A DNA stretch of 64,000 bases. Source: Amphiscolops sp. MND2022 (taxonomy: Eukaryota). Below the pieces are notes generated by a model. It did no database searches and was not told the DNA's origin. It worked only from the letters and a program-made list of their open reading frames with translations. Each line of letters starts with the position of its first letter. Position 1 is the first letter of the stretch. The translations under genes were made by a program, and so were the position numbers. Where the stretch lies: assembly GCA_964187785.1 (NCBI GenBank), contig OZ076409.1:63924001-63988000 (forward strand), in the 5' to 3' direction. Positions 2,373 to 49,936 of the stretch are shown here, in pieces.

Positions 2373-2959
2373 GAGTCCGTGATTTTGAAAGTTTTGAAAC
2401 TCAAAAGATCCATCGATACTGCGCCGTCTTTTGTTTCAGGATGTCACGCTTCGAACCCAGACAACTGAGCCAACGAACGGATACGGGACAACTTGCAGAA
2501 AAATGACTCAGGGACAATTTTCGGCAAATTGTCCTTCACGTTCGGCTAATTGTGTTTCGGCAAATTGTCCCGTATCCGGTTTTTGCCCCTGCGAAGCGTT
2601 TAAAATAGATTAGGTACTTCTCCTCACCTAATATGGGGTCAAATACGGAATGGGGCAGGGACGTTTCGTCACCAGCCATTTGGGCGACAAAAATTTCGGC
2701 CCATTTAAGCGACAAAAATGTCGCCTAAGTGTCCCGTAGACTAAATGGCCAAATATGTTCATATACCCCTAGTGCCCTAAATGCAGGAGCGAAGCGAAGC
2801 GACGTGCCATATGGCCATGCCTCAATGTTGCTACTTGGCGAAGGAAGCGAAGCGACCGAGCCATACAACAAATATGCTAACCTCTTCAAATATATCAGTT
2901 AATTGATAAATTTGATCAACCCATTTGGTCGACACTTTTGTCGCCCATGTGACCGACGG

Positions 2960-3441
2960 CGGTGGGCGTTTGGATCGAATGAATTTGCGCGAATATGCAA
3001 TCTGTCACTGAGATCGAAGTAAAATGGTCAAAGAAAATGAGATCGAATCCATGTTCTCAAATACATAGCGTTTTCAAATAACAATGTTTTTGGCCGTCGG
3101 ATATGCCCCCCATTTCCTCTAATGCCCCGCGGCCCCTTGGGGCCGCTCATGTTCCCATCTTGCTAAGCGAGGTCGAACAGGAGCAAAGAACTAGCGGGAA
3201 CGGAGATCGCGAAGCGATCGTAGTGGGAGCTGGTCTTTGCGACGGTGAGGGCGAGCGTGCATACACCGTATATGATCCCATATTAGGTGGGGAAAACTAC
3301 CTAAATAATTTTAAACGCTTTTAAACACTTTACAGGAGCAAAAACTTGGCAAAACCAGAAAAATTCGATCTCAAAACCTTCGATCCATTTTCGATCTCGC
3401 TTTTCGCTCACACAAAAATTCGATCCAAAAATACCCCACCG
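2960..3441. mobile_element. Foldback MITE E2 (ttcgatc repeats, core A) nested in E1
   Basis: Termini cggtggg..ttggatcgaa / ttcgatccaa..cccaccg; flanking direct repeat tgaccgacg at 2950-2958 and 3442-3450. Confidence 0.8.
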
Positions 3442-3465
3442 TGACCGACGCATATTATCGCCCGA

Positions 3466-4376
3466 GGGTGGGCGGAAGTGGGTCGAAGGAACGGGATCGA
3501 AAATCAGAGTTAGTCCTCAGGTCGACATAACAAATTTTTGAATGGGATGGAAAAACTCGGATCGAAATTTTTATAACGTAGTCAGATATGTTCACATACC
3601 CCTAGTGCCCTGAATGCAGGAGCGAAGCGAAGCGGAGCAACGTGCCATAAGGGGTTACCAGTCACTTGGCTTAATACCATTTGGCTTAATTTTTTCGTCG
3701 AGTCATTTGGCTTAAAATTATTAAGCCAAGTGACCACAAAATTAGGCCAACTCCATTCCAACTCAAGGAATAAATGTCAACACCCGGAAATATCATAATG
3801 TGGGGTATATGCGGTGTATGCACGCTCGCCCTCACCGTCGCAAAGACCAGCTCCCACTACGATCGCTTCGCGATCTTCGTTCCCGCTAGGTCTTTGCTCC
3901 TGTTCGACCTCGCTTAGCAAGATGGGAATATAAGCGGCCCCAAGGGGCCGCAGGACACTAGAGGAAATGGGGACATATCCGAGGGGTACTTGATATGACA
4001 TGTTATAATAATACGCTGACTACGTTATAAAGATAAATTCGACAAAATCTGCTACGTGTTTTCAACTAAATGGTTTTAAGTTAAATGACTTTAAGCCAAG
4101 TGACCAATACCCGAGACACTTAGCTTAAAAAAATTAAGCCAAGTGACCAATTGTATTAAGCCAAATGACTTTAAGCCAAATGGCATTAAGCCAAGTGACC
4201 ATTTACCCCATAAGGCCATGCCTCAATGTTGCTACTTGGCGAAGGGAGCGAAGCGACCGAGCCATACAACAAATACAATAAAATTCGACCGCATTCCATT
4301 CGATCCCTGCAATTCGATCAAAAGGTTCGACTTCTGTCGTTTCGACCAGAAAAATTCGACCTATTTACAGCCACCC
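3466..4376. mobile_element. Foldback MITE E3 (ttcgac repeats, core B) nested in E1
   Basis: Termini gggtgg / ccaccc; 9-bp TSD atcgcccga (3457-3465) vs gtcgcccga (4377-4385). Confidence 0.8.
3653..4207. mobile_element. Foldback MITE E4 (ttaagccaa repeats, core A) nested in core B of E3
   Basis: ~35-bp TIR ggttaccagtcacttggcttaataccatttggcttaa; 8-bp TSD ccataagg (3645-3652, 4208-4215); near-identical inverted copy at 47603-48158. Confidence 0.9.
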
Positions 4377-4413
4377 GTCGCCCGAATGGCTGGTGACGAA
4401 ATGTCCCTGACCC

Positions 4414-7400
4414 TACAAGGTCAAAGCCTAATTGTTGTTAAACTTCTTAAATAGAAGCTTTGATTAACATTGGTGACTGGACTGGGTCAGGCGACAAATA
4501 CTCAACTGACGTTTCTTAGACAATGTCTAGCTCAAAGAGGGCGAACCGAAACAACTCCAGTTCGAAGAAAGGACAGGGTGTGGTCAAAGAACAATGTTGC
4601 TCTTGTTACAAAGGTGATGAAGTGGGCGACGACTGAATTCAGTGTCACTTCTGTGACGGCTGGTATCATGAAAACTGTTCAGGGTTATCGGAAGTTATCA
4701 TCAGTCAACTATCACAAGCTAAGTATTTGTTGTTCAGATGTTCTCTCTGTTTGGAAAACGAAAAAGTTGAGGAAACAACTCGAAAAGTTATAAAAGATAC
4801 CATTCAGGAATTGCTACCTTCCAAAATGGAAACTGCATTGGAACAACTCAACTTGGGTGAGTTGTCAACGACAGTTACGGAACTGAAGGGCGAAGTTAGG
4901 TCATTGAAACAGGACCGAATTAATGACAAACCTCGTGAAAAAACGTTTTCCGAAGCAGTAAAATCGAGTGATCAAGGGCCAAAAACTTTTAGTGCTCATT
5001 TTCTTCAAACACAAAGATTAGACACTGTTTTTAATGTCAACTCTTTGGTCTCTAGTTCAAAGGCAGTTCGCAAGAAACGTGAAGTAAATATTGGGACAGG
5101 TGAAACTGAAACTTTCAAAGGTGTTGAGAAGACACCTCCTAGAAAACATATTTACATTGAGAGAGTATCTACGCAACATGATATCGAAACAGTTCGTGAC
5201 TACTGCAACGAAAAACGAATGGGGTTGCTCCATATAAGAAAAATATCGAGTGAAGAGTCCAGATAACATGCTTTTTATTGTGTGTTTGAAATGAAAGATA
5301 GAGACATAGAAGATCCATCACTGTGGCCCAAAAATGTTGTCATTGGAAGGTATCGCCTGAATGATTTGTACCGGAAAAGGTTGAAAACTTCACCAAAAAT
5401 TGACAATCAAAAATTAGGACAGAGTTTTTGAAATGCTCGGTCTATAATGCTCGATTAGTGAGAATGAAGACGATGGAAATTAACTCTGCTCTTCTATCCT
5501 CTCAGTCACAACTGATTACCATTACTGAAAGTTGGATCCAAACAAACCAGAACGACGATTTTCTCATAAATAAATGTTTGCCTGAAAATTATATTCCGTT
5601 TTCCTTTCCCAGGGAGTTTTCGACTGGTGGTTGTATTCGTCTCATACACAGAAAATATATTTCTATTTCTGTTATTCAAAATCTATGCAACCAAGACTTC
5701 GAAATTGTTACTTGTCGAGTACTTTCTTTGAATATTCCCATAATTTTCATCTGCTGCTATCATCCACCTTCTGGAAACTTGCAACTCTTTCTTGAAGAGT
5801 TTTATGGCTTACTTGTGAATTTTTCGTCTGAATACATCTTGCGTAGTGGCGATTTCAATATTCACGTCAATCGAATATGTTCAGCTTCGACTGATTTTAA
5901 AGATATTCTCGATGAGTTGGGACTCATACAATCACTTGAACTACCTACTCATAAAAGTGGTAACACTCTTGATCTTGTCTATGGACCACAAAAGTTTGAA
6001 ATATGTCTTGTTAGTGTCTCCACATCGGATCACCATTGTTTAAATTTTGACTGCTTTAAAGTTCTTCTGGAAAATCGTAAAAGATCCGTTGTTAAATTCA
6101 GAAATTGGAAAAAAGTTAACCTAGTAGATTTTAATGAAGATTGTTTTTATCATATGTGGTCTATCGTAGGGTCTCCTCTGGTTGACAGTTTCTTGGAAAC
6201 CCTTCAAACAATAAGGGAACGGCGTCAATTGGAAAGATTATTCAGAAAAACGCGGTCCACCATCGATAGACTACATATGCAAATTGCGACAGAAAACTAC
6301 TTTAAGCTTTTTCATAAAAAACGTTACAGGTTTTTTGTTTTTTTTTTTGGAGAAGAAAACTATTGATGCTGATACGTCGAAGCTGAAACTCGCGGCTATT
6401 TGGCCAAAAACCCTCTTTGGATGTAAAAAGAAGCAAACTCAACCTTCTGTCTTTCCTCGTGTGAAATTAGCAAACAAATTTAATGATTTTTCCTATCCAA
6501 AATTCAGAATATTCCTAAAAACATTCCGCCAGTTTTAGTAGACTCGAAAAGCCCGGCCTCTGGAAACGTTCTGGAAACCTTTGAAAACGTTGATAACTTA
6601 TTTGTAGTGCTTGTTAGCAATCAAGTGTCGTCGAAATCTCAACCTAGTCAAAAAGTGCCTTCTAGAGTTCTGAAGAAGTTGTCATTTTTCTATAACCAGA
6701 TGTCTTAGATTATCAATGAGTCTTTCCTTAATGCCGTCTTCCCCACTGCCTTCAAACATGGGATAGTTACACCAATTTTTAAAAGTGGTGACATCGAAGA
6801 AATATCAAACTACAGACCAATCACGAATTTGCATTTCGCTTCCAAAGTTATTGAAAAAGTCATTGCTCTGCAACTCAAACGCTTCTTGGATAAACATGTA
6901 GTATTTGACGAGCATCAATCTGCGTATAGAAAATATCATTCAACAGAGACAGCGTTATTAGACTCAACTTCAAATCTCCTATGGGGCCTGAACAACAAAA
7001 GTACAATTCTGGTGATATCCTTAGATTTATCATCAGCTGTCGACACCGGGATCATGAAATACTTCTGTAGATTCTATTTCAAATTGAGATTATTGGTCAG
7101 GCGCATTCCTTGATAAACTCCTACCTGAATGGTCGAACACAATGTGTCCTCAGTGATGGAAGCTACTCTGAGGATGAATCTTTTGAAACAGGTGTTCCTC
7201 TTTGATCGACCTTAGGGAAAGTGCTCTTCATTCTGTACTAACACCCTCTGAGATCTCTACTTAATGAATTTGTTGCTAGCTATCATATCTATGCCGATGA
7301 CATAACGATTTACTTGGAATTTGACCTGGGGACAACCTTTGCCAATTTTCTGAAACATAAACAGATAATTGCCAGTGTTTTGAAACTATAAGCTGCCTGC

Positions 7401-8166
7401 CTTGAACTTGTAAGTAAATGGCTCAAAAACTCAATGTATGTTCGTTACGAATCAAAGAACTCGTCTGCCCGAGACAATCACTATCGATGGGATCAGAATT
7501 GAGATCAAAGATAGTGTCAACGTTTTGGGAGTTACCTTGGATAACAAGTTCGGTTTCTATTCTTTCATCAACAGCACCTGTGCGAAGTCCTACTATCACC
7601 TCAGAAGGATAACATCAATTCGAAAATATTTTTCATTCGATCTCACAAGGTTATTGATTCTCACTTTCGTTATCAGTAGACTTGATTAATTTAACTCACT
7701 GTTATATGGTGCTCCGGACTACATGATCAAATAAACGCAAAGTTCAAAACAGAGCAGCATGCCTCCTTCTTGATCAAGGAAATTCTAATGTTAACTTACT
7801 TTCGAATGAACTTCTTTGGCTTCCTGTTGAAAAAAGAATTAAGTACAAAATCTTATGATTCGTATACCGTCCTTATAAAGACTTGCCTGTGCCTATTCAC
7901 TTGTCGGTACCGTTTTTCAGGTATCAGCAACTTGATCAGTACGATCTGAGAGTTTCCAGAGAACGAAAATGGACTGCTAGAATTACCAACAATACCTATG
8001 GAAAACGATGCTTCTGGGTATCAGGTGCTGAATTACGGAACTCACTACCATGTGATCTTATATTGAGCCCTTCATATGACACTTTCCAAGCACGATTAAA
8101 GACATACCTATTTTGAACGCTTTGAGTGTTAAAAAAGCGTCATTCACAACTTCTTCAACTTCAACG
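4414..8166 (+). mobile_element. Near full-length degenerate L2/CR1-group LINE: ORF1 (PHD finger, ~4523-5403) and ORF2 (APE + RT, ~5428-8116)
   Basis: ORF1 CCSC..IQCHFCDGWYHENC..FRCSLC; APE motifs ITESW, YHPP, GDFNIH, PTH..GNTLDL, SDH; RT motifs NYRPITNL, QSAYRKYHSTETAL, LDLSSAVDT, YADD; L2-type C-terminus WLPVEKRIKYK...LKTYLF; 3' tail (ttcaac)n. Confidence 0.9.
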
Positions 8167-9029
8167 GTGTATGCACGCTCGACCTCACCGTCGCAAAGAC
8201 CAGCTTCCACTACGATTGCTTTGCGATCTCCGTCTCCGCTAGGTCTTTGCTCCTGTTCGACCTCGCTTAGCAAGATGGGAACATTAGCGGCCCCAAGGGG
8301 CCGCCGGGCACTAGCGGAAATGGGGGCATATCCAACGGCCAAAAACATTATTATTTGAGAACGCCTGGTTTTCGGCAAATTGTCCCTACAAAATTCGGCA
8401 AACTCAAAGGGACAATTTGCCGAAAAAAATTCGGCAAATTGTCTGTCACGTTCGTCAAATTGGGTTTTGGCAAATTGTCTTTCGGCAATATGTCTTTCGA
8501 CAGTTTGTCCCTTACCCCAAGGAACAACAAATCTTGTGATTGGCACATCCAGAACGAAAAACATCAGATCAAAAGACATCGATGAAGCAGTTCACTCTTA
8601 CCGTGGTGTCTCCCTGCTCGAGCTCTGTAATCTGATCTAACAATACCCGCAGCGCAAGATAAACACCCTCATTATTGTCGCTGGTTTCAATGATCACCGT
8701 GATGCAGCTACTTCATTTTGCGGACAATTAGAAGTTCCTGATTCAACTTGTGTACCTGAAGTTCCAACCCCGTCACCTCATTATCCCAAAACCATTGCAA
8801 CTTCTAAAAACCAGTCAGTCAAGAGAAACATCGACCAGCTGAATTTTGCCCTATACTATCTGCTACGCTCCCTCAACCTGCCTATAATATCACCTCATTT
8901 CAATCGTGGTTTGGATCACAAGATCTTTGCCCGAGACAGCATTCATTTTTCTTGATTTGGAAGTTTAGTTTTCTCTCAGATTTTAAAATTTTATTCTATT
9001 CACTTTACATGTAATCAAATCAAACAATT

Positions 9030-12000
9030 GACACGACAGCTCTCCATCCACTCTGTCAGGCAATCGAACACACTGCAGCATTTGCCAGACCCATTTACGT
9101 AGTCCTGGCGTATGGTGTGCGATATGTGGATACGTGCACAGGAAATACAGCGGTCTCTCCGCTGCGAAAGACTGGTCCAAGGATTTTATCTGTGTACGCT
9201 GCCGAGGACCACGGCCAAGCGAAGCCGCCAACTCGCCAGCCATTGAACCACTGAACAGTTCAACAAGTCACCTGAGCACCGCCACACACCAGAGACAACC
9301 CCCGACTGATGAACTGAACGAAGAACTATCAGTGGATGGTTTCTGGGCAAAAGTCACCTCTGAAAAAGCAATTCAAATTGAAGAGTTCTACAATCAAGTA
9401 GTTCGTTGGAAACCTTCATTCATCACGCTGCCTAAAAACAAAACTGGTCACAAGTCTGTCGAGATAATGGACCGCGTACTATCTGCAATATCAGAGAAAC
9501 AAAGCAATGAGAACATAGCTTTATATGCAGCAATGCTAATGCCTTTTTTAGTTTATCAAAGACTACCTCTGAGCCAGATAAGACGAGGAACGAGACGACG
9601 ACCAGAAGACTGAGAAGATGGCTGAATGGCGAAATCGAAGAACTTTTCAAGGAAGCACAGGCATTGCAGAAACGAACAACGAAATCAAAATCCAACAATA
9701 GAGCAAAAGATATGTTTTGAGACTTCGATGCACACATGTCCGCACGAAAAAGCTCAATTGCCCTACGGAGTGTAAACGAATTTGAGAACGGGGGAGTCCT
9801 ATTCGTTTAAAAAAAACTGACAGCGAGTCGTTTCTGTATATCTTCTTGAAGGAGAAAGACCCCCCAGCGAAAAGTTGCGACAACACCTACGTAGTTGCAA
9901 GTTCCGAAAACATTTCGCCTTACCATCCTGTAATCTTTTACAGAATACAAACAGGAGCCATTCGTAGAGCCGGAATGAAACACACGGAAGCCACGCACCC
10001 TCCGATGTGGATGCCAACGAATGGCGGCGCTAGATGTCCAATTTTAACCAGTCATCGACTTCACTCTCTCGTACAGTCGCCCGCTTAGCTGTGAGGATCG
10101 CTACTGAAGAAATTGACAGTGAAGCACTAAGGCCGTACAATGCCTGCTGTTTCATACCCCTTGACAAGAATCGAGGGGTACGAACAATTGGGGTTGGGAA
10201 AGTTCTCAGACGAATCATAGGAAGAAGCATACTGCGCTGTGTAGAGAACGACCTGAAACTCTTAGGTAAAAACAAACAACTTTATCTCGGTCTGAAATGC
10301 GGAATCGAACACGCTATACATAGCTTCAGGCAACAGTTAGAGACCCCTGATGTTCAAGGCATTTTGCTCATCGATGCAAAGAACTCTTTTGAAAGCTTGA
10401 ACAGTGATTTCGCGCTCCGGAACATCGAAAATTATGTCCTTTAATATTTACAGCTATCAAAAACTCGTCCAAAACATCGACAAATCTTTTTGTCAACGGC
10501 TAAACCTTGCAATCACAAGAGGGGACAACTATAGGAGATCCTCTAGCCATGGCGATGTACAGAATTGCTACCCTACCGCTGATTGACCTGATTCAAAAAT
10601 CAAACATCACTCAGAAGTGGTACGCTGACAATGGTAATGTAACAGGCAGCCCCAAAAACCTAAAAGCGGTTCACCAACATTTGGAAAAGCACGGACCTGC
10701 TTTCGGTTACACACTGACGAAATGTAACATCATTGCAAAACCGAACACTTGAAACAAGCCCAGAATCTATTCTTCAAAGAAAATGTTGAAATAGTTGATG
10801 GACATCGTGTCCTCGGGTCGGTAAAAGGATCAGAGTCTGCTTGTGAAAAATTCACAAACCATAAACAAAGTGATTACATTCAGATCGTAGAGAAGTTGTC
10901 GAAACACGCAAAAATTTCTCCCCAAAATGTATTTCACTGCTTCACCAAATGTCTTCAAAACACAGTGACTTTTCTCTCACACACGACTCCTAATTTCATA
11001 GAAAATCTGAAACGGAAAGAAATATCAAGGAAAACCTGATCCCAGCAATAACAAGCAGAAATGACATCATGGACGAGGAGCGTTCTCTTTTCTCCCTGCC
11101 TGTGAGGGATGGTGGACATAACATAGTACATCCTGAAGGCAGAGTAGAAGAATTGAACTGGTCGAGACAAATGGCAGCATGTTTAGACAATGACGATGAC
11201 GCAAAAGCTCAACAGTCTTCAATCGTGAAACAAGTTAGATAAAAGAAATCCGCAAAAATCAACGGAAAGATATCAAAATTGAAGGAAAAATTTGATGAAA
11301 AACAACGCTACGCACTAGATCTGTCAATTGAAAAAGGTCAATTTAGTTGGTTGAGCACGATGCCACTCAAACGATATCACTTGGATATATCAAAAACAGA
11401 ATTCCGCGACAGTTTGGCTCTGCGCTATGGATGGGAACCACTAAAAACACCGTCAATGTATCCCCGTGGAGAGTCTTTCAATCTATCGCATTTCCTTCAA
11501 TGCAACAAAGAAGGGTAGAGCCAAATGCGACACAAAGAAATTCGCGACACCTTCGCCTCCGTTATGAAAGAAGTCTGCTATGATGTCGAAATTGAGCCGA
11601 AACTTGAGCCTTTGGAAGGTGAGTTCTTCGTCCATAAAACAACGACAACTGAAGATGAGTCGAGACTAGACATTAAAGCAAACAGACTTTGGGATTCTCG
11701 TTTCTGTAGATTTTTTTTCGACGTCAAGATTTTCAATCCGCTCGATAGAGAAAGTCCCAAAAATATCAACGAAGCATACAAATTTCACGAATCTCAAAAA
11801 CTCAAATACGAGTCCAGAATTATAAATGTGGAAAAAAAGCATCTTTAACCCTCTAGTCTTTGCATGTACAGGTGGCGCTGGACCATCAGCCACAAAAGTA
11901 ATTACTCGACTAGCTGCAAAAATCAACGAAAAAGGTTCAGAAAGCTACGCTGACGCGATCAGCTACATTAGAACTAAGATTTGCTCTTCTACGTAGTTCC

Positions 12001-12096
12001 GTCCTCTGTTTCAGAGGGTGCAGAGCGACACGCCGCCAACAAGCAACCGTAGAGTCATCTATCAGTGCTACAGTTCACGAGGGAGGGCTGTCATAA
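9030..12096 (+). pseudogene. CRE-type polyprotein: PHD finger, reverse transcriptase, restriction-like endonuclease
   Basis: CSIC...WCAICGYVHRKY...FICVRC (PHD-like, one Cys replaced) at ~9073-9200, then ORF fragments 9134-9613, 10034-10444, 10507-10752, 10749-11039, 11279-11518, 11525-11848; ends ...VHEGGLS*. Confidence 0.85.
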
Positions 12097-12239
12097 CTCT
12101 GACAATCCCTCGGGTGCTTCCCACGAAACTCTATATTTCAAATAGCTTCGTTTTGCGAGCAGTTAACCATCTTAGTTGTTCAAACAAGATGAGATGACGC
12201 AAGTTCTCATGAATTCAATTGAACCGTTCTGCTTCTCTG

Positions 12240-13034: not shown

Positions 13035-15150
13035 GTAGCGCTGGATAAAGTTAGCCAAAGTATGTTAAAATCGATCGTACTAGAGGGTATGTTGCAAGAT
13101 AACGACTCTTTGAAAACCGTGCACCACTTTTCGAGGGATAAGGTGACGTTAGTAGTGGTTAAAATAGCGTCGAAAAATTTCGAAAACTCAAGATATAGTT
13201 CTCGGTCATCGACATCTAGTACATCTGAAAATGTCGCATTGTGTTCCAAAGGTGGCAAAAGCAGAACATTGGCTAAAACGTTTTCGATCGAGAAGTTTTG
13301 AGAAAGTTTAGGCGTTGTAACGAGACAGGACACCACCAAATCGACTGCGAAGTTACGCAGTGCACTTTTTGGAAACTTTTGGTCACGATGAAAAACGTTG
13401 GTTTAAAGAAATTCCTCATCCAAAGCAAAAGGGAAACACCTCAACTGTGGCATCTTCTAACTTTTCCGAAGTGTTTTCGTTTTCCTGCTGTGAAAACGGA
13501 GTTCAAAATCGAACTTTTGTTTTAGATTCTGGCGCTTCATCACATATGTTCACACAAAGTGGAAGAGTGGTCGGTCAAAAATACAAATGATAGCTTTTCC
13601 AAAGTCGAGGTGACTGGCAATGTTCGTGTATGCCTTTTGGACACTGATGGAAAAGAACAATTTGTAACGTTAGCCAATTGTCTTTTTCTTCCTGATCATG
13701 CTCAAAACTTGATCAGCGTCGACAAACTTAGCCAAAAAGTCGTAAATTTTGAATTTGGAAAAAAGTCTCAACTGGTAGCTCCCATTGGAACAACTTTTTC
13801 AATTATCAAAAGCGAAAACCTCTACTTTTTGAAAGCTAAGATTCTGAGGTTTTTGTTACTTCGTAAGGAGAAAACGAACACTCTTTTGTGTCATCGACGC
13901 CTCGGTCATGGGTGATATTGACGGACTTTCATCTTGTGTTTTGGGGATGAAATTCAAGGGTTCAAGTTTAGAAAAACCATATGTGTGTGAAGTTTGTCAA
14001 AACTCCAAGTCCCACAACACTCCTGTCTCCAACAATCGACAGCCTCAAAAATCTGAAAAACTTGAGCTAGTTTTCGCTGAAGTTTTGAGGACTATGCCAA
14101 CAACTTCTCTGGGCGGTCAACGTTTTGCGATTTCTTTTGTTTATAGTTTTACTCGTTTTGGGGTGGTCTTTTTTTGTGAAGTCCAAAAGCGAATGTTTGG
14201 AAAAATTTTAAATTTTAAAGGTTGTGCGCTCAAGTAGGGACACCAAAAGGTTTTCCGTACAGATAACGGTACTGATGAAACCTTGCATCAAAAATGGAGT
14301 AAAAAGCGAGTTCACTGCTCCATATTCGCTTCATGAAACTGATGTCTGCGAATATCGTTGGCGCACTATTGTCGAAAGGGCGCGTGAACCGATTTTTCGG
14401 AAAGGACTTTGGACACTGTTTTTTGTATTACCAATTGCTGTTTGACATCAAGCTCGCCAAAAAGGAAAACGCTTTTTGAAATGTTCTTTGGCGAAAAACC
14501 GGATCTGTGTAATGTCTGAGTTTTTGAATATTTATCGCATATTGGAACGCACCAAGATAAGCTCTAACCAAAAGTCACTAGAAAACTTTTTGTTGTTACG
14601 CGCCTCTGTCAAAAGCCTACATTCTCTTCGACCCCTAAACAGGCAAAACTTTAGCTTCCCGGAATGTGGCTCTCAATGAACACTGCTTTTTGCAAAATCA
14701 TCTGCACAAAGAGAGCTGTTCACGGAAAAGCTTTCCAATTGAAGACCGCGGTGAAAAATCCGGTGTCAAAAACGTGTCTTCTACTGAGTCCGAAACTACC
14801 GAAAACTTCCTTCGTCATACGGACTCCGAAATGTCAGAGTCTTACTCAGTGCCTTCTAGCCAAAAGGACTTTGAAAATTACGACCAAAACGAGGTCAAAA
14901 CCATTGTCAAAAACATCGAGCAAAACATTGTCCAAAACACTGTCCCACGAACTGCCTATTCTCAAAATCAATCTTTTCCCTGCTCGCGCAGTGGCCGCCC
15001 GCTTAGATCCAAGGAGAGTTTCAATAGCTGCAAACTTCAGTTTTGACGTATCAGCTTCGTCAAGTGTTTTTCCTAAAAACCTAGTACGTTTTTTGCAAAG
15101 GCCTCTAAAAAGTTATCTCTCGCATTTTGCAAATGTAGTCAATCGCTAGT
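13035..15150 (+). mobile_element. Ty1/Copia internal fragment (gag end, protease, pre-integrase, integrase)
   Basis: FVLDSGASSHM protease, HRRLGH...CEVC zinc motif, integrase core; closely similar to 17590-19020. Confidence 0.9.
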
Positions 15151-26962: not shown

Positions 26963-26979
26963 ATATATTTAAATTAATG

Positions 26980-31180: not shown

Positions 31181-31188
31181 AGGTATAT

Positions 31189-32440: not shown

Positions 32441-32471
32441 ACGGGTTTCGATGATTTTTGACATTTTACAA

Positions 32472-37100: not shown

Positions 37101-37590
37101 AAACCAAACTCAAACTTTCCACTGAAACTCAAACTTTGAAAATTAATGTTTGAGTTCCCTGGTCGTTACTTTATCAAAAAACGGATAACTTTGAAATATG
37201 AAAAGATGTGAGATTTTTTTGTCATTTTCGGTGTGATTTGAAACATTTTCACTTAGAAACTGCAATAAAGTGTACGTAAAAGCCTACTGGACAACACATT
37301 CTTTCTGTGTAGACCTTTTCAACGTTCCATTCCACAAAGACCGTCAAAAATTTGGAAAAAAAATCATTGAATCTTTGAAATTTGGGAAAGTTTTGGGATT
37401 ATTCAGTTTCGGTGTCAATTTGAGGATTTTTGATTTGAATACAGCTATTATCTTTTCGGTAAGGCCTACTGGACAACAAACTAGTGGTATGTTGAGCAAT
37501 TTCTACTTTTTAATCCACGAAGTTTATCGAAAATTTGACAAAAATTGCATGAAAACATTGAAATCGGGACTTTTTTGTTTTTTTTTGTCA
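34178..37590 (+). repeat. Degenerate ~180-bp satellite-like array with unique arm, interrupted by a hAT element
   Basis: Related motifs (consensus like tttcaacgttccattccacgaag) at ~35681, 35860, 36058, 37317 (182 bp from the previous one after removing the hAT); cctactggacaaca at 37283 and 37466. Confidence 0.7.
36093..37161 (+). mobile_element. Internally deleted hAT DNA transposon with transposase remnant
   Basis: TIR cagggaattcaa / ttgagttccctg; 8-bp TSD gtcgatgc vs gtcgttac; (ctcaaa)n subterminal repeats; WRKLENVCNILKPLQELTLYLHGE is a typical hAT/ZBED segment. Confidence 0.85.
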
Positions 37591-37949
37591 TTTTTGTCAG
37601 CGGAAAAAAAATTAATTATTATAGAAGTTAATCCTTCCGACGTTATTCCCGGTTTACTTTTAGATGTTATTTCCTAGACCTTATTCCGGCGATATATAAC
37701 CAAGTTGAAAATTTTGGTCGAAAAAATTCAGGTCGAATATGGTCGACAAGAAACTAGGTCAAAATTGAAGGGATAGTTTTTCGGTCGACATAATTAGGTC
37801 CAATATGTGAATATTTGCGAAAATAATCAAAACGAAAATGGGGGTCATTGACGGTGCATTCACACTCGCCCTCACCGTCGCAAGGACCAGCTCCCACTAC
37901 GATTGCTTTGCTATCTCGGTTCCCGCTAGGTTTTAGTTCCTGTTCGACC

Positions 37950-40900
37950 GGTATGAAACGACGGGCGGGAATAACGTTGTGGTATAACCTCGCAAAGCAA
38001 ACATAAAAAAAACTTTAATTCCACGTATAAATCATTATCAGCTCAATCTGAAAAGACACACTTTACAACCATCAGTTTTAATGTTGGTTGAATCAGTCAA
38101 TAATAAACGTAGTCACCACACTCTACCTGCCTTTGTTTTCTGAGTCGGCCACCTCTTGGTAGCGGCGGAGATGACGTTTCTTCTAGAAACTGTTTGGCTG
38201 GGGATACGTTCAAACCAACATCCGAAGGACTTTCTACGGTCTTGACCGTGCTCGGGGCTCTTTTACATCGGGAATTCGCTTGCTCTGATGGAAGTTCCTG
38301 CGACGTATCATTTGCGACTGTGTCCGGTTCTGTCGGTATTTCCGTCGGATTCTGCTCCGAAGTATTGGTAGTGTCAGGTTCTGGTCCCTTCGATATAAAT
38401 TTTTTGGCGACCGTGTCGATTCGGTTTGTCTCTGTGTACGAAACCACTGCGTGTTGTGGCGATAATAGGCGCAAGTATCGTGCAAGGTGTACTAATGAAT
38501 CGTCTTTAGACTTCTTTGTAAAATTCTTTATGAATACTGTCGAACCCTGAGACATCCATTTGGGTGTAGAACTAGAACAGGTTGGCGTTACGTCACTTTT
38601 GTCAAAACCTATATAGTTTTGTTCCAGCGATGAGCGTCTTGTGAATCCGAACAGGCAGCTGTGAGGACTTTCGAAACCGATTGCTCACGAAGACAAACAT
38701 CGAATATTGCACAAAACTTGCGGAATATCTTCGTCCAAGATCTCAGCTGGTTTGTGAAGTTGCTTCAGTCGAAGTTTCACTGTCTTCCAGATTATTCCGT
38801 TCAACCTCTCGCATTGGCCGTTACCAGCTGGATTGTACGGAGTGGTTCGCGTTTTGTATAAGTTCTAACAATCCAGAAAGAATTTGAACTCCGAACTTTC
38901 AAACACACTTCCTCGATCGCTATGAATCGCCAGTGGAGGACCAAAGATCGAAAATAGTTGTGATAAAGCTGATATGACACTTGTTGTGTTAGCTTCTTCG
39001 ACGACAAATGCGAACAGAAATCTGCTAAATTTGTCTACAACTGTTAAAAAGTACTTGTTGCCTGACGATATGCGTTTCTTTGGACTTACGAAGGCTAGCG
39101 ACAGTCTTTCCTAAGGTTGTTTGGATCTGATAAGTGGAGTGTAAGGTGGTTTGAAGAACCTGGGTTTAAGCTCTCGACAGACAGAGCATTTCGAGATGTA
39201 GTCTTGGACCTTTTGCTTCAGATTAGATACATCGAAACTTCGTTGGATAAACTCAACGATTCCGGCTTTTCCGGTATGGCCCATTTTGTCGTGGACTGCC
39301 TTGAGTATTAAGTTTATGTCACCTGCGATATACGTTTTGTTCTTTTCTTCGTCTATGGCGTCGTATCCGGTTTCGTCCGATTGTGAGCAAAAAGCACTGA
39401 CTCGGCTCATCGCATCAGCCACTTCGTTCAGTTTACGTTTCGGGTACTGTACGTCGAAATCGTATTCTGATAGTACTAATCTCCACCGACATAAATTGCT
39501 GTTTTCGATAGAGGACCGTGGCTTTGAGTCAAACAAGTACGAAACTCCTTCTTGATCTGTCAGTATGGTGGAACGACTTCCTAGCAGGTACCGCCGACAT
39601 TTCTGTACAGACCACACTATAGCAAAAGCTTCTTTTTCAATCGCTGACCAATTCATCTCTTGGTCCGAAAAGTAAAGAAATACGAAGGCTACTGGTTGAC
39701 CATTTGGGGCTAGAACCGCGCCAATTGCGTTGCCGGAGGCATCTGTTTTGAGCACGAAAGGCTTCGTTCTGTCTGGGATCCACAATGCCGCTTTTGATAC
39801 CACCTGGTTAAATAAATTATATGCTGTTTATGGTCTCAGTGTCCAGCGGAAGCTTTCCGTCTCGTTTCGCCTTCAGCAGCGGAGCGACTATATTTGCAAA
39901 ATCACCTGCCCACATGGAGTAGTAGACACTCATGCCGACGAATCAGTCGAGTTCTTTCACTGTTGTAGCAACAGGGACTTCTAGTAAGGGTTTCATCCGC
40001 AATTCGTCTGGATGAATTTTCTATTCGAAACCCGATGGCTAAGGAATTTCAACACCCAAACTTTGAATTTCGATGTTTCTTTATTGAACCTCGCAAAGCA
40101 AACGTAATATTAAACTTTTATTCGACGTAAAATCATTAACAGTTCAACCTGAAAAGACACAATTTACAACCATCAGTTTAAATGTTAGTTGAATCAGTCA
40201 AAAATACACGTAGTCACCACAAACGTCTGAAGAATAACGTCCTAATTGGCAGCATGAATAACGTCTGAATTTAAATCATTTTTCGGGAACATCGACCAAA
40301 ATTTTAGACGTTATTCCCGTTTTTTAGACGTTATTCCTGTTTTTTAGACGTTATTCTTTTTTTGAAAATTGAACTTTCTGGAAGTAAAAATGTCAATTTC
40401 TGAATGTTTTCGTTCGGAATGGCTGGGACAAAAATGGGTCATCGCAACGATTTTGCTCCATTTCGACTTCGCTTAGCAAAATGAGAACATAAGCGGCCCC
40501 AAGGGGCCGCGGGGCAGTATAGCAAATGGGGACAAATACGAGACATGTTTTATAGTTTAAATCACTACATAGCATTAGATCTTGATTGACCTGAATTTTC
40601 CCAATTTTAGACGTTATTCCCGTTTGTTAGACGTATTTTGTTTGTTTTTGGTTATTTTAGGCATTTTCCCCCAATTTTAAACGTTATTCTACTTTTTTAG
40701 ACGTATTTTGACGATTTTTTAGACGTTTTTCTGTAATTTAGACGTTATTCCCGTTTTTCAGACGTATTTGACAATTTTTCTGTCTTTTAGATCTTTTTCT
40801 GTATTTTAGGCGTTTTTCTGTTATTTTCACAGAACGAGTTGTTTTTTTTAAAACCTCTAAATCATTGCAGTTTTTAAAAAAATTTCTACCGTTCGACTGG

Positions 40901-41287
40901 GATAGTGGCTCGTATGCGTAGTTTGTTGGTTGTTTTTTTCTGTTACTGGGATAGTGGCTGGCATGGGGTTCCCTATTTTCGTTGCAGACCACGGGTGTGT
41001 GTCATCGCCCTCCATTATGATGATACACATGGCACTTGATTGATATCGAAGATCCATGATATCTGCTAGTAGAGAAAAAATTTGGAAAAATTAGGACGTT
41101 ACTCACGTTTTCAGGTTTAGACGTTATTCCTCTTTTCAGAATTTTTTCCACTGTTTAGACATTTTTCCCGTTTTTCTAGACGTTATTCCCTAATGTTTCA
41201 GTTTAGATGTTATTCCTTTAGACGTTTTTCCCGGTGGATCTTTAGACGTTATTACTCAGACGTTATTCCCTCCTCTAGTTTGGAACC
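37950..41287. mobile_element. Foldback MITE F2 (tagacgttattccc repeats, partial core A), split by a Gypsy insertion in its left TIR
   Basis: Left end ggtatgaaac..gggaataacgt|ctgaagaataacgtc matches reverse complement of right end gacgttattactcagacgttattcccc..gtttggaacc; core A part at ~40450-40535. Confidence 0.7.
37978..40221 (-). mobile_element. Ty3/Gypsy LTR retrotransposon with gag/PR/most of RT deleted; LTRs 37978-38120 and ~40087-40221
   Basis: TG...CA LTRs, 5-bp TSD aacgt, purine tract next to the 3' LTR; RNase H (TDASG..IGAVL, EKEAFAIVW, TDQ, ADAMSR), integrase HHCC and core. Confidence 0.92.
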
Positions 41288-41291
41288 AGTA

Positions 41292-41973
41292 GGTAGAATC
41301 CAGTTTGTAGAAAAGTGACGTCTAGTTTGTAGAATTTTCTTTCTACATACTGGATTCTACAAACTGTTGAAGTCCGGTTAGTATGGAACCAGTTTGTAGA
41401 AAACCAGTTTGTGAAATTCAGTTTGGAGAAAAATGAGGTCCAGTTTGTAGAATTTTTAAAATACAATTTGGATTCTACAAACTGGTTTTCTGCAAACTGG
41501 TTAGGTCCAGTTTGTAGAATACCAGTTTTAGGATTCTGGAATTTAAGAAAAACAACAAGACCAATAATGTAGGAAAGAAGCAAAATATAAAACGTGCCTC
41601 GGATATGACCCAATTTCCTCTAGTGCCAGGCGGCCCCTTGGGGCCGTTTATATTCCCATTTTGCTAAGCGAGGTCAAACAGGAGCAAAGACCTAGCGGGA
41701 ACGGATATCGCGAAGCGATCTTAGTGGGAGCTGGTCTTTGCGACGGTGAGGGCGAGCGTGCATACACCGGAAATGCCCCACATTTCAGTTTTCAGATCTC
41801 GTTCCTTTAGGTCTTAGGCAGTGGAGCTCTCAGGATCTTGTGTCAAGGATGTCCAGTTTGTAGAATTCATTGATCCAGTTTGTAGCATTTAATGATCCAG
41901 CTTGTAGAAAAACAATTCCACAAACTGGAGCACCTAGGAACAGTTTGTAGAATTCTAAAAACTGGAACGAATT
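41292..41973. mobile_element. Foldback MITE (ccagtttgtagaa repeats) with full core A
   Basis: Many direct and inverted ccagtttgtagaa units; core A at ~41600-41770. Confidence 0.75.
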
Positions 41974-42019
41974 TGTTCGACCTTTTTTAGCACGATTGGA
42001 ACAAGGTTCTCCACAAGGC

Positions 42020-43557
42020 TCTCATGGCCTTCCCCAACGGCTCCAGTGCAGTGTTGGACGGCAGTTCGCCCCATTTTTGAAAGCTTTGACTGCCAATTCG
42101 AACGGGCAAACTGGACTGTTTTTTCTCAAAGACTTAACAAATTTTGTGAATGTTATTCTCGATGGAAAAGTACCTTTAGAACTTCGGCCGTTCTTCTTCG
42201 GTGCGAAACTAATTGCGCTAAAAAACCCAATGGAGGATTGTCCGCAAAATGTGCCGGATACCATATTTTCGAATCACGTCAAGCAAGATATGGAAATCAA
42301 CAAGTAGGTGCAGGCACCAAAAGGGGTGCTGAAATGGCCTCACGAATTTTCCGTTAATTGAAAAAATCCCCTAGCCCAAACAAAACGTAATTTTGAGAAT
42401 TGACTTTGAAAACACTTTCAATTCGATAAACCGACAATTCATGCTAGAGAAAATTTTTGAAATAGACCCTGACGTTTATAAGTACTCACACTTGGCGTAC
42501 AGTCAGCCAAGTTTTCCTTTTTACGGTGATTCAGTAATCAAATCTTGCGAAGGGACCCAGCAAGGAGATCCTGAGTCTCCAGCTTTACTTTTTGATTCCC
42601 TTCAGGGTCTGATTGACAGTTTGGAGTCAAAAATAAACCTTTGGCAACTTGACGATGGAAATTTAAGTGATGATTACAGAACCGTTTTGAAAGATCTCAA
42701 ACAAATTATTGGAACGGAAAAAAACGTTGGGACTCAAAATTAAACCAACAAAAAGTGAAATTTTTTCCTTGGTGGTATCACAGAAAAACGATGATCGACA
42801 ATTTTAGCACCTTTCCAAAAACTTTGCCTCGGGATCCAAACACCAAAGAAAGATGAACTTATAATTCTTGGTTCACCGCTCGGCACGAAATCACAAGCAG
42901 ACTTATTGGAAAAGAAAATTAATGAAATGGAAAATATTTATGAAAATGTTGAAAAACTAGATGCACACTATGGTTTCTTATGTTGAAAAAATTGCTTCAG
43001 TCTGCCAAAGTTGTTGTACTTCCAGAGAACCAGTACATGTTTTAATCATCCAACTCTCTTGGGAAAATATGACAAAACCGTACGCGACGGGCTTTCCGAA
43101 TTGTGTAAAGTGAACTTCGACGATATTTCGCGTACTCAGCTGGCTCTGCCCGCTCAGATAGGTGGTCTTGGGGTTTCATTCGCATCATTATTAGCACTTC
43201 TTGCCTTTCTGGTCTCAACTTTTGGTGCGAGTGACTTTCTCACGACGATTTTCTCGGAAACACTCGAAGATATTTCGTTTTAAAAGCGTTTGAGAAATGG
43301 TTGAGTATGACGAATGAACAGGAAAGTTCTCTCGATGGAATTCAGAAAAATTGGACACAACCTGTCTATGTCAAAACCGCCCAGCATTTGATTTCTAGAA
43401 TGGATGACAAACGTTCGAATGTTTTTAACGCTCATCAAGGCAAGTTTGGGTCTCAATGGCTGAACGTCGTTCCTTGCAAGAACCTAGGATTGAAACTTGA
43501 TGATCAGCAGCATCGGATTTCAATTGGTTTGCGTCTCGGAGCCAACATCTGTGTTGC
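42020..43557 (+). mobile_element. Second CRE-clade retrotransposon fragment (RT and post-RT region)
   Basis: FFGAKLIALK, QVGAGTKRGAE, IDFENTFNSINR, GTQQGDP, WQLDDG, LPAQIGGLG, QWLNVVP...GLRLG; abuts the Gypsy integrase. Confidence 0.88.
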
Positions 43558-47527: not shown

Positions 47528-47602
47528 GGCTGGCGAACACGTTCACTGATGTCATTTCTGCTTGGAGCACACGATACGTGATGCTACCAAAGTAGATATA
47601 GA

Positions 47603-48158
47603 GGTAAATGGTCAGTTGGCTTAATGCCATTTGGCTTTAAGTCATTTGGCTTAATACAATTGGTCACTTGGGGTAATTTTTTAGGCTAAGTGTCCCGGGT
47701 ATTGGTCACTTGGCTTAAAGTCATTTGACTTAAAACCACTTAGTTGAGAACACATGGCAGACTTTGTCGAATTTATCTTTATAACGTAGTCAGCGTATTA
47801 TTATAACATTTCATATCAAGTACCCCTCGGATATGTCCCCATTTCCTCTAGTGCCATGCGGCCCCTTGGGGCCGCTTATATTTCCATCTTGCTAAGCGAG
47901 GTCGAACAGGAGCAAAGACCTAGCGGGAACGAAGATCGCGAAGCGATCGTAGTGAGAGCTGGTCTTTGCGACGGTGAGGGCGAGCGTGCATACACCGCAT
48001 ATGCCCCACATTATGATATTTCCGGGAGTTGACTTATTTATTCCTTGAGTTGGAATGGAGTTGGCTCAGTTTTGTGGTCACTTGGCTTAAAATTTTCAAG
48101 CCAAAGGACTCGAAGAAAAAATTAAGCCAAATGGTATTAAGCCAAGTGAATGGTAACC
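47603..48158. mobile_element. Foldback MITE, E4 family (core A), inserted in the Gypsy 5' LTR
   Basis: GG...CC termini, perfect 8-bp TSD gatataga (47595-47602, 48159-48166). Confidence 0.92.
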
Positions 48159-48567
48159 GATATAGAACGGGTTTAAAGTACACGATACGTGATAGTTTAA
48201 GGACAGATAAAAAGAATACGCTTGAAGCACACGACACGTGATACTACAAGGTGATATTCATGAGCGATACAATTGTAGCTCCGATCCAGTTCAGGCTTTG
48301 TTAGGAATAAGATGCAAAGGAACGAACTAAAAAAAGGTAAGGGTAGATGTTCCTTGTTTGCAGGTTCTTTGTAGATTGCAGAAGTAGCTCGTCCACTTAT
48401 TGAGAATAGAGGATCATATAGAAACCTCTATTTGTAGAAACAGTGGTAATAAAACATTTATTTCATACAATAATCCTCTGAAATAGAATGACACTTTAAA
48501 AATACATCTATACATTTTACGATCTGTTATAATAGAGTTTGCGACATTGTACAATTACATATAACTT

Positions 48568-48950
48568 ATTTTTTAAACCTCTATATCATTGCAGCTTTAA
48601 ATAATTTCTACCGGTCGACTGGGACAGTGGCTGGTACGAGTAGTTTGTTGGTTGTTTCAATGATGATACACATGGCACTTGATTGATGAAGATCCATGAT
48701 ATCTGATAGAGGAAAGAAAGGAAAAAGATTGGAACATGAGCGGCCCCAAGGGTCCGCGGGGCACTAGAGGAAATGGGGACATATCCAAGGCACGTTTTAA
48801 ACTCTAAATCAATTCCAAATCTGGAGGTTTCATGTTGCCTGCCATATGTCGATCCAAGTTGTTTCGATCTGGATCGCTAATTTGGACATTTCGATGCGAG
48901 GATTCGATCTTTCTATTTTGATTCCGTTGTTTCGATCCCAGCTTATCGCT
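48568..48950. mobile_element. MITE relic: segment shared with 40845-41067, partial core A, ttcgatc repeats
   Basis: 48568-48706 matches 40845-41067 with a deletion; gcggccccaagggtccgc hairpin at ~48740. Confidence 0.6.
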
Positions 48951-49936
48951 TGAAATTTGACCAAAAGTCACCCGTTATTCCTGATCCCCGAGACTATATA
49001 GAAGCTTTAATTCTAGAGCTGCTGACGGATATACATGTTGCAAGTCGGACAGTCGCATTATGCCGAAAAAAAAACGAAAAGTGACCAGCTATTGCGGAAA
49101 TAATAAATTTGGTGTTTCCCTTAAAATTTGGATGAATCGAAACCTTTTTCTTCGAACCTCTTTGCGGAAAATATCTCGCTTCTTAGAGGGCGTCTTGTTG
49201 AATTTTCATATAGGATAAAGTAAATAAAGCTGTTTTTTCGGGGCACCTGTTTTCGGGTTTTTGACATTTTTCGCTCTTGAATATTTCGCACTGATTATGT
49301 CGGTAAGAACTTTGCAGACAGCAGCCAGCTTTCTTATCGCCAGGTGCAGTGGGGCATTCATTGTGTCATTTTAATTTTAACTTTTCCTATTTGTGCCCGG
49401 AAGAATGAGCAAGCGTGGTGAAACGCTCAAGATTAAAATTAAATAGGATCTAATCTAATTTATTTAAAAAATTCCATTTACCTGGTATCTTCCGCCTAAG
49501 ATCTGACCAGGTTTGGAAAAAGTATCAAAGTCTCCTCAGAAAGCATGATGATTTGAAATAAGGTTTCCTTGATTGAAGGCATTGGTATAGCTGTGGTGTG
49601 AATACTCTGCCTCGCCGTTAAAAAGACCAGCTTCCACTTAATCGCCTCGCGATCTTCGTTACGTCTTTTCTGTTCGGCCTCGCGTTGCAAGATGATCGCT
49701 GGGAAGCGGGAGCGGCCGCAGGGCACTAGAGAAGTTGGGTTCGTGAGCTAAACCTCATTGTTAGCGAGTCTTCATTATAAAACAATGATACTGCAAAAAT
49801 GATGATAAAATAAATGTTTCAATCGTGTGTGTTAGATCATATTCTGGTTTTCTAATGATTTTCATCGAGTTTTCTTTTCGTGGGTATCGAATGTACTGTT
49901 TTGATTTTTTCAAGAATCGTTTGATGAAACATCAAA

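Follow-up and report, generated by a model that had tools for sequence, protein, structure and literature searches.

MITE families are defined by common ends, with whatever lies between regarded as free cargo. A shared interior is already known in a simpler form from corals. As the report on Acropora CMITEs describes, several non-autonomous families with different TIRs have a common interior which is more conserved than the TIRs, and one element carried the interior of another family; the authors left the role and origin of this interior open (PMC2872659). CMITEs are about 100 bp long, with 13-14 bp TIRs that all have CC[C/T]T and with TTAA TSDs (piggyBac) (PMC2872659).

Other described systems resemble the elements reported here in single traits. 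The type 2 foldback MULEs, Muta1-14 of Aedes (PMC5225508, PMC5499845) and Tm1 of nematodes (PMC3169594), have long TIRs of family-specific 9-15 bp subterminal repeats, 8-9 bp TSDs and many non-autonomous derivatives, and Tm1-HH has a conserved internal hairpin, which is the histone stem-loop within one TIR family (PMC3169594). Merlin elements have terminal GG, 8- or 9-bp TSDs and TIRs of 24-462 bp, sometimes imperfect, with several families per genome and internal tandem repeats (PMC8101967). In Pack-TIRs and Pack-MULEs, template switching guided by microhomology at internal breaks puts new sequence between the TIRs (PMC8277862). The highly conserved domains of SINEs, and the V domain on MER6, are conserved middles with different ends and can ride a DNA transposon (PMC6887750).

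We analysed a single window, the whole 64-kb stretch of DNA, together with contigs from two thin independent runs, X1 and X2 (small shares). The window has small non-coding foldback families whose ends do not align, yet which hold inside one of two near-identical hairpin-rich middles, core A or core B. These elements work like CMITEs, with an interior that is better conserved across families than the TIRs are, but are not CMITEs, since TTAA duplications, CC[C/T]T termini and a length of about 100 bp are not found. Here the units are 280-700 bp, the arms are long, internally repeated and non-aligning, and the TSDs are of 8 or 9 bp by class. Further differences lie in a choice of two cores, in recombinant junctions that can be seen, in elements nested within each other and in a rate test for constraint. 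The initial annotation held that MITE families usually share ends and differ inside, and that this is reversed here; the reversal stands, and the published precedent which it did not name is the CMITE report (PMC2872659). For this exact pattern CMITEs were the only match in a literature search with most subscription journals and Repbase Reports outside its scope.

Long subterminal-repeat TIRs and TSDs within 8-10 bp, as in the definition of type 2 foldback elements (PMC5225508), are present, whereas the common ends and heterogeneous interiors of that group are reversed. Terminal 5'-GG with an 8- or 9-bp TSD, as in Merlin, is also present (GG at both ends in 5/10), but the accessible Merlin account reports no interior shared across families (PMC8101967), and no DDE_Tnp_IS1595 protein was found in the window. 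Unlike Pack-TIRs with their varied host cargo (PMC8277862), these elements take the same two modules repeatedly, and unlike the SINE conserved domains, cores A and B have no SINE features and gave no sign of being conserved outside the relatives of this organism.

Cores, arms and element map

The modular foldback system that was first annotated, with core A in about ten places and core B in four, is confirmed as a whole: the cores are in place and the arms differ by class. BLAST, nhmmer and a profile search recovered exactly the ten named copies of core A (E 1e-57 to 6e-12), at 3096-3289, 3789-3983, 8159-8336 (3' flank at 2594-2648), 32206-32315, 37828-37950, 40435-40542, 41598-41792, 47826-48020, 48725-48789 and 49584-49749. 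Core B was recovered four times, at 2754-2883, 3587-3656 with 4208-4279, 15539-15659 and 16336-16470. Inverted arms are found on both sides of 11 of the 14 cores, on one side of two and on no side of one (at 49.6 kb). Just 5/10 core A copies are full-length and young. Of the others, two belong natively to the tagacgttatt family and consist of the 5' half, one amounts to the 5' third, one was divided when an element inserted into it later, and the last is about 67-69% identical. Full core A copies from four arm classes are 88-94% identical while the arms of these classes do not align, which agrees with the annotated view that the interior is shared and the arms vary.

Seven arm motifs had been listed as unrelated arm types. 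Several distinct types exist, but the seven collapse into about six classes, since GGTCGAA and GATCGAA both occur in the ttcgac element, four times each. Among 435 arm pairs 57 were significant, 56 within a class and 1/57 across classes, so the arm types in the window do not align as one diverging family. "Unrelated" is nevertheless too strong: two motifs are one class, and matches of 12-14 bp link three classes, between the arms of E1, E2 and c47.

The TSD length of 8-9 bp holds at 9 of the 10 tested boundaries (7/8 to 9/9 matching, four perfect); over 49 offsets the chance of 9/9 or 8/8 is <=0.001, and that of 7/9 is 0.09, not significant. The exception is E2, which has no 9-bp match and whose right copy is cut by a LINE. 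The length is fixed per class, 8 bp in 3/3 TTAAGCCAA elements and 9 bp in 6/6 others (p=0.012). No TSD was found at the boundaries of t31, c48, c49 and the c37 host. Termini had been given as mostly GG..CC; GG is at one end or more in 9/10 and present in every class but one, but at both ends in just 5/10. What moves is the complete arm-core-arm structure, which makes an 8- or 9-bp duplication; a core does not move by itself.

The outermost element on the left is E1 (2479-8516, minus strand), a foldback with GGCAAATTGTC arms at 2479-2579 and 8366-8516, GG at both ends and a 9-bp TSD matching at 8/9. It is interrupted by E2 and the LINE, and its core A is on the minus strand (8164-8337; 3' flank resuming at 2580-2646). 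E2 (2647-4418, plus strand) has GGCGAC arms in a long TIR and is inserted at the 3' edge of this core A; its right boundary is a probable one (TSD copy cut by the LINE), and its core B (2752-2880, plus strand) is identified by sequence match to the other core B copies. The right arm of E2 harbours E3 and E5, and is empty of both in run X2. E3 (2958-3440, plus strand; GATCGAA arms, core A 3096-3289, TSD 9/9) has about 270 bp of interior in common with E1, and recurs whole with its own 9-bp TSD at another locus in the independent run X1. E5 (3466-4376, plus strand; GGTCGAA/GATCGAA arms, TSD 8/9) has a core B at 3585-3652 and 4208-4280, split by E4 (3653-4207, minus strand; TTAAGCCAA arms, core A 3789-3983, TSD 8/8), which was inserted within it. 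The decayed LINE at the junction of E2 and core A (4419-8163, plus strand; endonuclease and RT Pfam matches, junctions) is outside the system.

Two old elements of the TTAAGCCAA class carry core B. They are b15 (15363-15752, minus strand; core 15540-15660, TSD 7/8, arm homology to E4 at z 6-18) and b16 (16168-16599, minus strand; core 16336-16470), which aligns with b15 end to end; the ends of b16 are tentative, with a candidate TSD of 8/8 and no GG ends.

The TAGACGTTATT arms flank the 5'-half cores. t31 (31190-32445, plus strand; core A 32205-32313) has the layout of t40 and no clear TSD. t40 (37960-41277, minus strand; core A 40435-40542) has a weak TSD of 7/9, contains a gypsy element (about 37986-40221) and lies in the left end of c41. 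c41 (37950-41973, plus strand; TTTGTAGAA arms, core A 41598-41792, TSD 9/9) sits inside the core A of c37 (37700-37949, minus strand), which has a GGTCGA arm and the 3' half of core A, resuming at 41974-42018, with no right arm seen. The foldback m32 (32472-32748, no strand assigned) has TTTGTAGAA arms which align with c41 and a TSD of 8/9; similarity and profile searches gave no core match in it.

c47 (47603-48158, plus strand; core A 47826-48020, TSD 8/8) is a second copy of the E4 family, 94% identical to E4, in a gypsy element. In c48 (48566-48960, minus strand) the 5' third of core A (48725-48790) is flanked on one side by a GATCGAA arm; on the other lies a segment common to the t40 interior. 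c49 (49584-49749, minus strand), recognised by core similarity, is an old core A with no recognisable arms or TSD. This armless copy is about 180 bp before an ORF with an LDLa domain.

Probable core exchange, and nesting

The same arm class can carry either core, and recombinant junctions are found at core edges, which supports the earlier claim that the core is transferable. The TTAAGCCAA arms carry core A in E4 and c47 and core B in b15 and b16, and arms with the TCGA motif carry core A in E3 and core B in E5. E4 is itself an exchange product, a shell and spacers of the b15/b16 (core B) type with core A: its core-B upstream motif is retained up to a shared ACCCCT, and core A follows. The other product is t31, in which an E4-type arm is joined at the core edge. 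Compared with c47, mismatches in t31 are 24/578 before the core edge and 21/109 after it (4% vs 19%, p=4e-7). The 578-bp segment (31627-32204, plus strand), a gypsy fragment with E4-type left arm and spacer, is to judge by its match to c47 a copy from a c47-like locus, fused at the 5' edge to the core that belongs to t31 itself; t31 could also be an assembly chimera. One contig of run X1, with 30 letters per side, has core A next to an arm motif of the E1 type and a flank of the c41 type, and this pairing is absent from the window.

Nesting is frequent. Six of 11 insertion sites are inside other elements, which are 12% of the DNA (p=8e-4), and 3/11 are in cores (p=0.005). The six nested sites fall in two nests and are not independent. 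The same nests were also hit by a LINE and a gypsy, and run X2 has one further E4-type end in core B.

The reading that we favour by a modest degree is as follows. The roughly six arm classes likely belong to different Mutator- or Merlin-type transposases. Recombination anchored in the shared core likely carries it from class to class, and it likely persists owing to better amplification of the copies in which it is intact. The annotated transposase-binding role of the arms and their Mutator or Merlin affiliation are putative. TSD length is no proof of separate transposases because Muta1 alone yields both 8- and 9-bp TSDs (PMC5225508). No transposase was found in 99 of the 106 window ORFs (>=90 aa; the 7 spanning assembly gaps left out).

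Arm-core-arm units transpose whole and make 8- or 9-bp TSDs. Elements land in each other's cores and arms, and therefore unlike arms adjoin a core. A break at the core edge might then be repaired by copying from, or recombining with, another core, which would give new arm-core pairings, and deletion of the leftover inner arms would complete the swap. The core may act in cis as a helper which keeps the element accessible, most likely as a patch that is rich in GC, resembles a promoter or forms hairpins, and this accessibility would also attract new insertions. It is not strictly required, since m32 has no core and t31 and t40 have half. Single steps have parallels in earlier work: subterminal repeats increase Muta1 binding and excision (PMC5499845), internal MITE sequence modulates transposition (PMC9921582), animal TIR elements are filled by template switching with microhomology (PMC8277862), and maize Mu targets open chromatin and TSSs (PMC7337890).

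A bolder reading is speculative and in our judgement rather unlikely. The core would serve cut-and-paste elements as a portable amplifier cassette, tied to no one transposase: a hairpin and promoter-like module, strand-specific and under selection at the level of the element, which boosts mobilisation, lures other families to insert alongside, hops between transposase systems, possibly across superfamilies, and outlives each arm set. If so, the core would live as a parasite on MITEs and would be to DNA transposons what core domains are to SINEs. As a general mobilisation enhancer it would explain how non-autonomous lineages outlive their transposase, and it could improve transposon vectors.

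The window gives exchange products, a route (nesting and core-anchored recombination) and a first sign of selection, and therefore the question of conserved interiors becomes testable. In practice, similarity-based repeat libraries will lump these families together, and both ectopic recombination and misassembly are likely to occur at the cores.

Possible constraint on the cores and alternative origins

Private changes in core B are 1/114 in E2 and 3/117 in E5, against 9 and 18-20 in the old copies (p<0.05 in 6/8 tests), while the E4 shell has 25/155, similar to the old copies (18, 23); the core and shell rates differ at p=1e-5 and 2e-4, in a test with four core B copies and with core and shell taken from different young elements. 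Young core B is at the ancestral node of the old copies, and the arms and shell are not. For core A, young copies changed less than old ones in 32/32 overlapping triplets (p<0.05 in 11/32), and for the c41 core 0/8 triplets were significant. This suggests, from sequence comparison, selection on the core in amplifying lineages, though gene conversion, or an E4 shell that split off early, would also produce this rate pattern. For the annotated claim of a functional core, this rate test on few copies is indirect support. In the E3 copy of run X1 the core has fewer changes than the rest, 2/173 and 12/310 among those listed (p=0.10, not significant).

Neutral cargo is a possible explanation, though we hold it doubtful. 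The cores would be pieces of an abundant older repeat without function, recaptured in Pack-MULE style because they are common and nested, and kept alike by gene conversion. It fits that m32 moved coreless, that t31 and t40 have half cores, and that the old copies decay evenly (b15 vs b16, 71% and 72% identity in core and shell). E1 and E3 share spacers as well as the core, at 85-93%, as a recent bulk transfer would yield, and the same exchange mechanism fits. No covariation in core A was significant either (2 double changes; 68/500 shuffles equally high), with 90.5% of the cells in the core A alignment paired. Folding also weighs against the favoured reading: core A folds only modestly better than shuffles on one strand (z -2.1 to -2.3), with RNAalifold choosing a weak alternative pairing on its 3' half, and core B in most tests is no more stably folded than its shuffles (z +2.5 to -1.9). 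However, the Aedes MULE derivatives have heterogeneous interiors (PMC5225508), whereas all foldbacks but one have one of the two cores here, and the position of young cores, but not the shell, at the node of the old copies also argues against neutral cargo. So does the likeness of the cores, whose ends carry common motifs although their middles differ. Core B was missed by the profile of core A, and in global A-B scores E2, E5 and b16 were beaten by 0-14 of 1500 GC-matched windows and b15 by 37-79; from end motifs and these scores A and B may be related.

An origin of the core in the host is improbable. Its source would be a constrained locus, either a promoter or a gene for a small RNA, or else a promoter that is conserved in the autonomous elements, and being inherited or recaptured by the non-autonomous families it would change slowly. 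The slow core lineage agrees with this, and Tm1-HH foldbacks captured the histone hairpin (PMC3169594). A 9-mer beside the core has 8 matches vs 0.28 expected, 3 of the 8 being outside the system in two elements, a gypsy LTR and a hAT-like element. The nearness of the armless old copy to the LDLa-domain ORF is in line as well, but this copy is the most decayed and not the most conserved. Against it, Rfam gave 6 matches in 2400-4500, which has both cores (E 1.2-4.2, all far below the gathering score), ARAGORN found 0 tRNA genes, and no autonomous element was seen in the window. The cores by exact pattern were absent from viral contigs, metagenome contigs and prokaryote genomes, and core A by blastn from phages; these negatives say little on range because those collections hold little animal DNA.

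A single old family is very improbable. Slippage would renew its arms quickly, in co-evolution with a single lineage of transposases, and the core would be the ancestral interior. The star-like core A tree (0/7 branches supported), the GG ends in all classes but one, the 12-14 bp arm matches and the E3 and E5 arm motifs, one base apart, are what it would predict. But arms that do not align around cores of 88-94% identity, either core in one arm class, class-specific TSD length and recombinant junctions at core edges speak against it.

That the core itself is mobile, a SINE or non-autonomous Helitron which targets foldback centres, is extremely improbable, since its edges have no TSD or tail (edge repeats of 5-8 bp at most, out of register or core-internal), a B-box-like 8-mer in 3/8 cores tested has no paired A box, and the flanks are common to families, which independent insertions would not produce. 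Cores mostly free of arms with TSDs of their own had been named as the contrary finding; in the window, no duplication, tail or tRNA head belongs to the cores as such, and one copy is armless. The GCGAAGC mini-hairpins, of which 8 cores have 10 and 56 kb of background have 4, are confined to one strand and would suit a mobile core, as would the B-box-like 8-mer and the armless copy.

Helitrons end in a 3' hairpin and then CTRR, and insert between A and T. The minus strand of core A has an 18-nt GC hairpin six bases before CTAG, which resembles such an end. The base after CTAG is A or G where a Helitron would have T, and the similarity between A and B continues about 20 bases beyond CTAG, so the candidate was rejected.

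Core copies and the moving unit

The analysis drew on the 64-kb window and on a small share of each of two public sequencing runs (X1 and X2). The window is repeat-dense animal DNA, with LINE, gypsy and copia-like remnants that gave Pfam matches to RT, RNase H and integrase. The ten core A and four core B copies listed in the initial annotation were all recovered by BLAST, nhmmer and profile search, and these searches found no further full core copy in the window. Five of the ten copies of core A are both complete and young, and the others are halves, a third, one split and one old copy. Among the five complete young copies, core A identity was 88.2-93.5% between arm classes (values for element E3 are depressed by a one-base misregister; BLAST gave 89.9-93.1%) and 97.6% within the single class sampled twice. 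The location of nearly every core between inverted arms, as first proposed, holds on both sides for 11 of 14 copies, while two have an arm on one side and one has none. This last one, an old copy of core A, stops about 180 bp ahead of the one LDLa-domain ORF (Pfam) in the window, a 316-aa open frame near 50 kb (49928-50878) with nearest relatives at 81% and 40% (ENA or Logan proteins).

Element boundaries were obtained from a joint TIR and TSD scan plus direct check. TSDs matched completely in E3 (2958-3440, 9/9), c41 (37950-41973, 9/9), E4 (3653-4207, 8/8) and c47, the second copy of the E4 family (47603-48158, 8/8), and a perfect match has a chance of at most 0.001 over 49 offsets. Matches of 8/9 were found for E1 (2479-8516), E5 (3466-4376) and the coreless foldback m32 (32472-32748), of 7/8 for the old core B element b15 (15363-15752), and of 7/9, which is not significant, for t40 (37960-41277). 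E2 (2647-4418) had no 9-bp TSD match; its right TSD copy appears to be cut by a LINE. Run X1 contains a complete E3 copy, differing at 16 of 483 bases, that sits at a different locus and has a 9-bp duplication of its own. In run X2, the right arm of E2 is found lacking both E3 and E5. Therefore the moving unit is arm-core-arm. The core edges examined in the window showed no duplication of their own, no tail and no tRNA head, and the cores matched no Rfam family.

Arm classes and nesting

Among 435 pairs from 30 arm segments, 57 reached z of at least 5 against shuffles, and 56 of these were same-class pairs. The classes are GGCAAATTGTC, GGCGAC, TTAAGCCAA, TAGACGTTATT and TTTGTAGAA, plus a TCGA class united by motif only: the arms of E3 and c37 aligned with nothing, and E5 contains both variants. 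Matches of 12-14 bases connect the arms of E1, E2 and c47. TSDs were 8 bp in 3/3 TTAAGCCAA elements and 9 bp in 6/6 others (p=0.012), so TSD length is class-specific. It suggests different transposases but is no proof of them, because Muta1 is reported to yield both 8- and 9-bp TSDs (PMC5225508). The arm anatomy equals that of type 2 foldbacks, for which subterminal repeats are described as increasing transposase binding and excision (PMC5499845), and the GG ends with 8-9 bp TSDs fit the published outline of Merlin equally well (PMC8101967). No transposase was found in the 99 of 106 window ORFs scanned. In the E4 family, the longer arm (4040-4207; 47603-47770) resembles a duplicated TIR with an outer and an inner end, the latter matching the b15 terminus, and in this it is similar to plant MULEs, where tandem TIRs are reported (PMC3310237).

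Six of 11 mapped insertion sites lie inside other members of the system, which makes up 12% of the window (p=8e-4; with alternative counts, 6/13 gives p=0.002 and 4/11 gives p=0.035), and these six form two nests, are not independent, and share their location with inserted LINE and gypsy. Three of the 11 sites are within cores (p=0.005). In run X2, the core B of an E2-type element likewise contains an E4-type end, located at another position.

Exchange of cores and their possible role

Exchange of cores between families is visible as end products in the arrangement of the elements. TTAAGCCAA arms hold core A (E4, c47) or core B (b15 and b16), and TCGA-motif arms hold core A (E3) or core B (E5). 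The E4/b15 alignment covers inner arm, spacer and core B upstream motif up to a common ACCCCT, past which E4 becomes core A, and b15-type sequence resumes on the far side. E1 and E3 have about 270 bp of interior in common between non-aligning arms. The elements t31 and t40 are arranged alike around a 5'-half core A. Unlike t40, t31 carries a 578-bp segment of gypsy DNA with an arm and spacer of E4 type, matching the arrangement at c47, and this segment stops at the first core bases: mismatches to c47 rise from 24/578 before the core edge to 21/109 after it (p=4e-7). Template switching or a between-core deletion would produce this junction, and it may also be a misassembly. Microhomology template switching is described as a documented route by which TIR elements in animals acquire sequence (PMC8277862). 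In an X1 contig, core A has an arm motif of E1 type on one side and a c41-type flank on the other (30 letters per side), a pairing absent from the window. A third shared internal segment (48566-48726 and 40842-41090; 87% over 94 bp and 86% over 74 bp) is found inside the TAGACGTTATT element t40 and beside the GATCGAA-armed partial core at 48.7 kb.

Private changes were counted in triplets with two old copies each. In core B they were 1/114 in E2 and 3/117 in E5 (young) versus 9 in b16 and 18-20 in b15 (old), with p<0.05 in 6/8 tests. In the shell (the non-core part) of its class, young E4 had 25/155, similar to b15 (18) and b16 (23); core versus shell gave p=1e-5 and 2e-4, with few copies and with different young elements in the two comparisons. 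For core A the young copy had fewer private changes in 32/32 overlapping triplets, with p<0.05 in 11 and in 0/8 of those with c41. E4 and c47 differ at 5/199 core sites and 23/355 sites elsewhere (p=0.044). Core and shell decay equally in old copies, and in most cases there is some excess of CpG; any constraint therefore falls on lineages that are amplifying and not on inserted copies. The signal might also arise by gene conversion, or if the E4 shell split off early.

The cores are shared between arm classes and the units that carry them are mobile, and we infer that the core has a helper function. The leading and somewhat probable reading is that distinct foldback families have a helper module in common, through nesting, core-anchored swaps and better amplification with an intact core. 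Nesting would place foreign arms next to a core, core-anchored repair would exchange arms, and copies whose core is intact would have an amplification advantage, which probably stems from the core maintaining accessibility of the element. Modulation of transposition by internal MITE sequence has been reported (PMC9921582), and Mu is described as targeting open chromatin (PMC7337890). The main rival, that the core is neutral cargo spread with gene conversion, seems rather unlikely; in its favor, m32 and the half-core family show that the full core is dispensable.

The system resembles coral CMITEs in the shared interior and in working mode. Their interior is more conserved than the TIRs, and the authors leave its origin and role open (PMC2872659). 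Since CMITEs are described there as piggyBac-type, 100 bp long and with related TIRs, unlike this system, ours is CMITE-like in working but not a CMITE. The novel features are that the arms are long and do not align, that there are two TSD lengths and two exchangeable cores, that junctions are visible, and that a constraint signal is seen. The literature searched, with most subscription journals and Repbase Reports outside its coverage, contained no closer precedent.

Nature of the cores and other repeats

Both cores have a GC content of 49-58% versus 40% in the background, and both carry GCGAAGC mini-hairpins on a single strand only (10 in 8 cores versus 4 in 56 kb). Core A folds into a row of hairpins with z of -2.1 to -2.3 on this strand and 90.5% of cells paired, and no significant covariation was found in it; for core B, most tests gave folding no stronger than that of shuffled sequences. 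The cores have common ends, ATATGT...CTAGTGCC and CGAGC...CATACA, and their similarity exceeds nearly all shuffled or GC-matched controls, less clearly for b15. The core A profile did not detect core B. By these sequence comparisons, core A and core B are likely related. The 9-mer ACGTAGTCA is directly upstream of the core in E4, E5, b15, c32 and c47, with 8 matches in the window versus 0.28 expected. It is also near one end of both LTRs of one gypsy element and within a hAT-like element (37029-37037, 38107-38115, 40208-40216). As a weak hint, it is possibly a host factor site for several TE types.

The element at 36093-37161, which we take to be hAT-like, has CAGGGAA...TTCCCTG ends, an 8-bp TSD-like pair and AAACTC subterminal repeats, and its ORF remnant had no transposase Pfam match. 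An AT-rich dispersed repeat family with inverted copies of about 70% identity occupies 26174-26963, 34178-36087 and 37282-37367. Two decayed copies of one element, presumably copia-like, have 83-87% identity (13036-14720, 17590-19019). Two decayed non-LTR retrotransposon stretches (9000-12100, 41950-43550), with only a weak RT match, resemble the R2/NeSL/CRE group, and c37 is truncated by the second of them. There are two 200-N gaps (26980-27179, 55972-56171). The sequences on either side of the second (55825-55971 = 56172-56318) form a nearly exact 147-bp duplication that is probably an assembly artefact. A perfect TTGTTCAA(A) array of 17-bp period lies between b15 and b16 (15862-15939), and a T-rich 21-bp array is immediately left of E1 (2226-2363).
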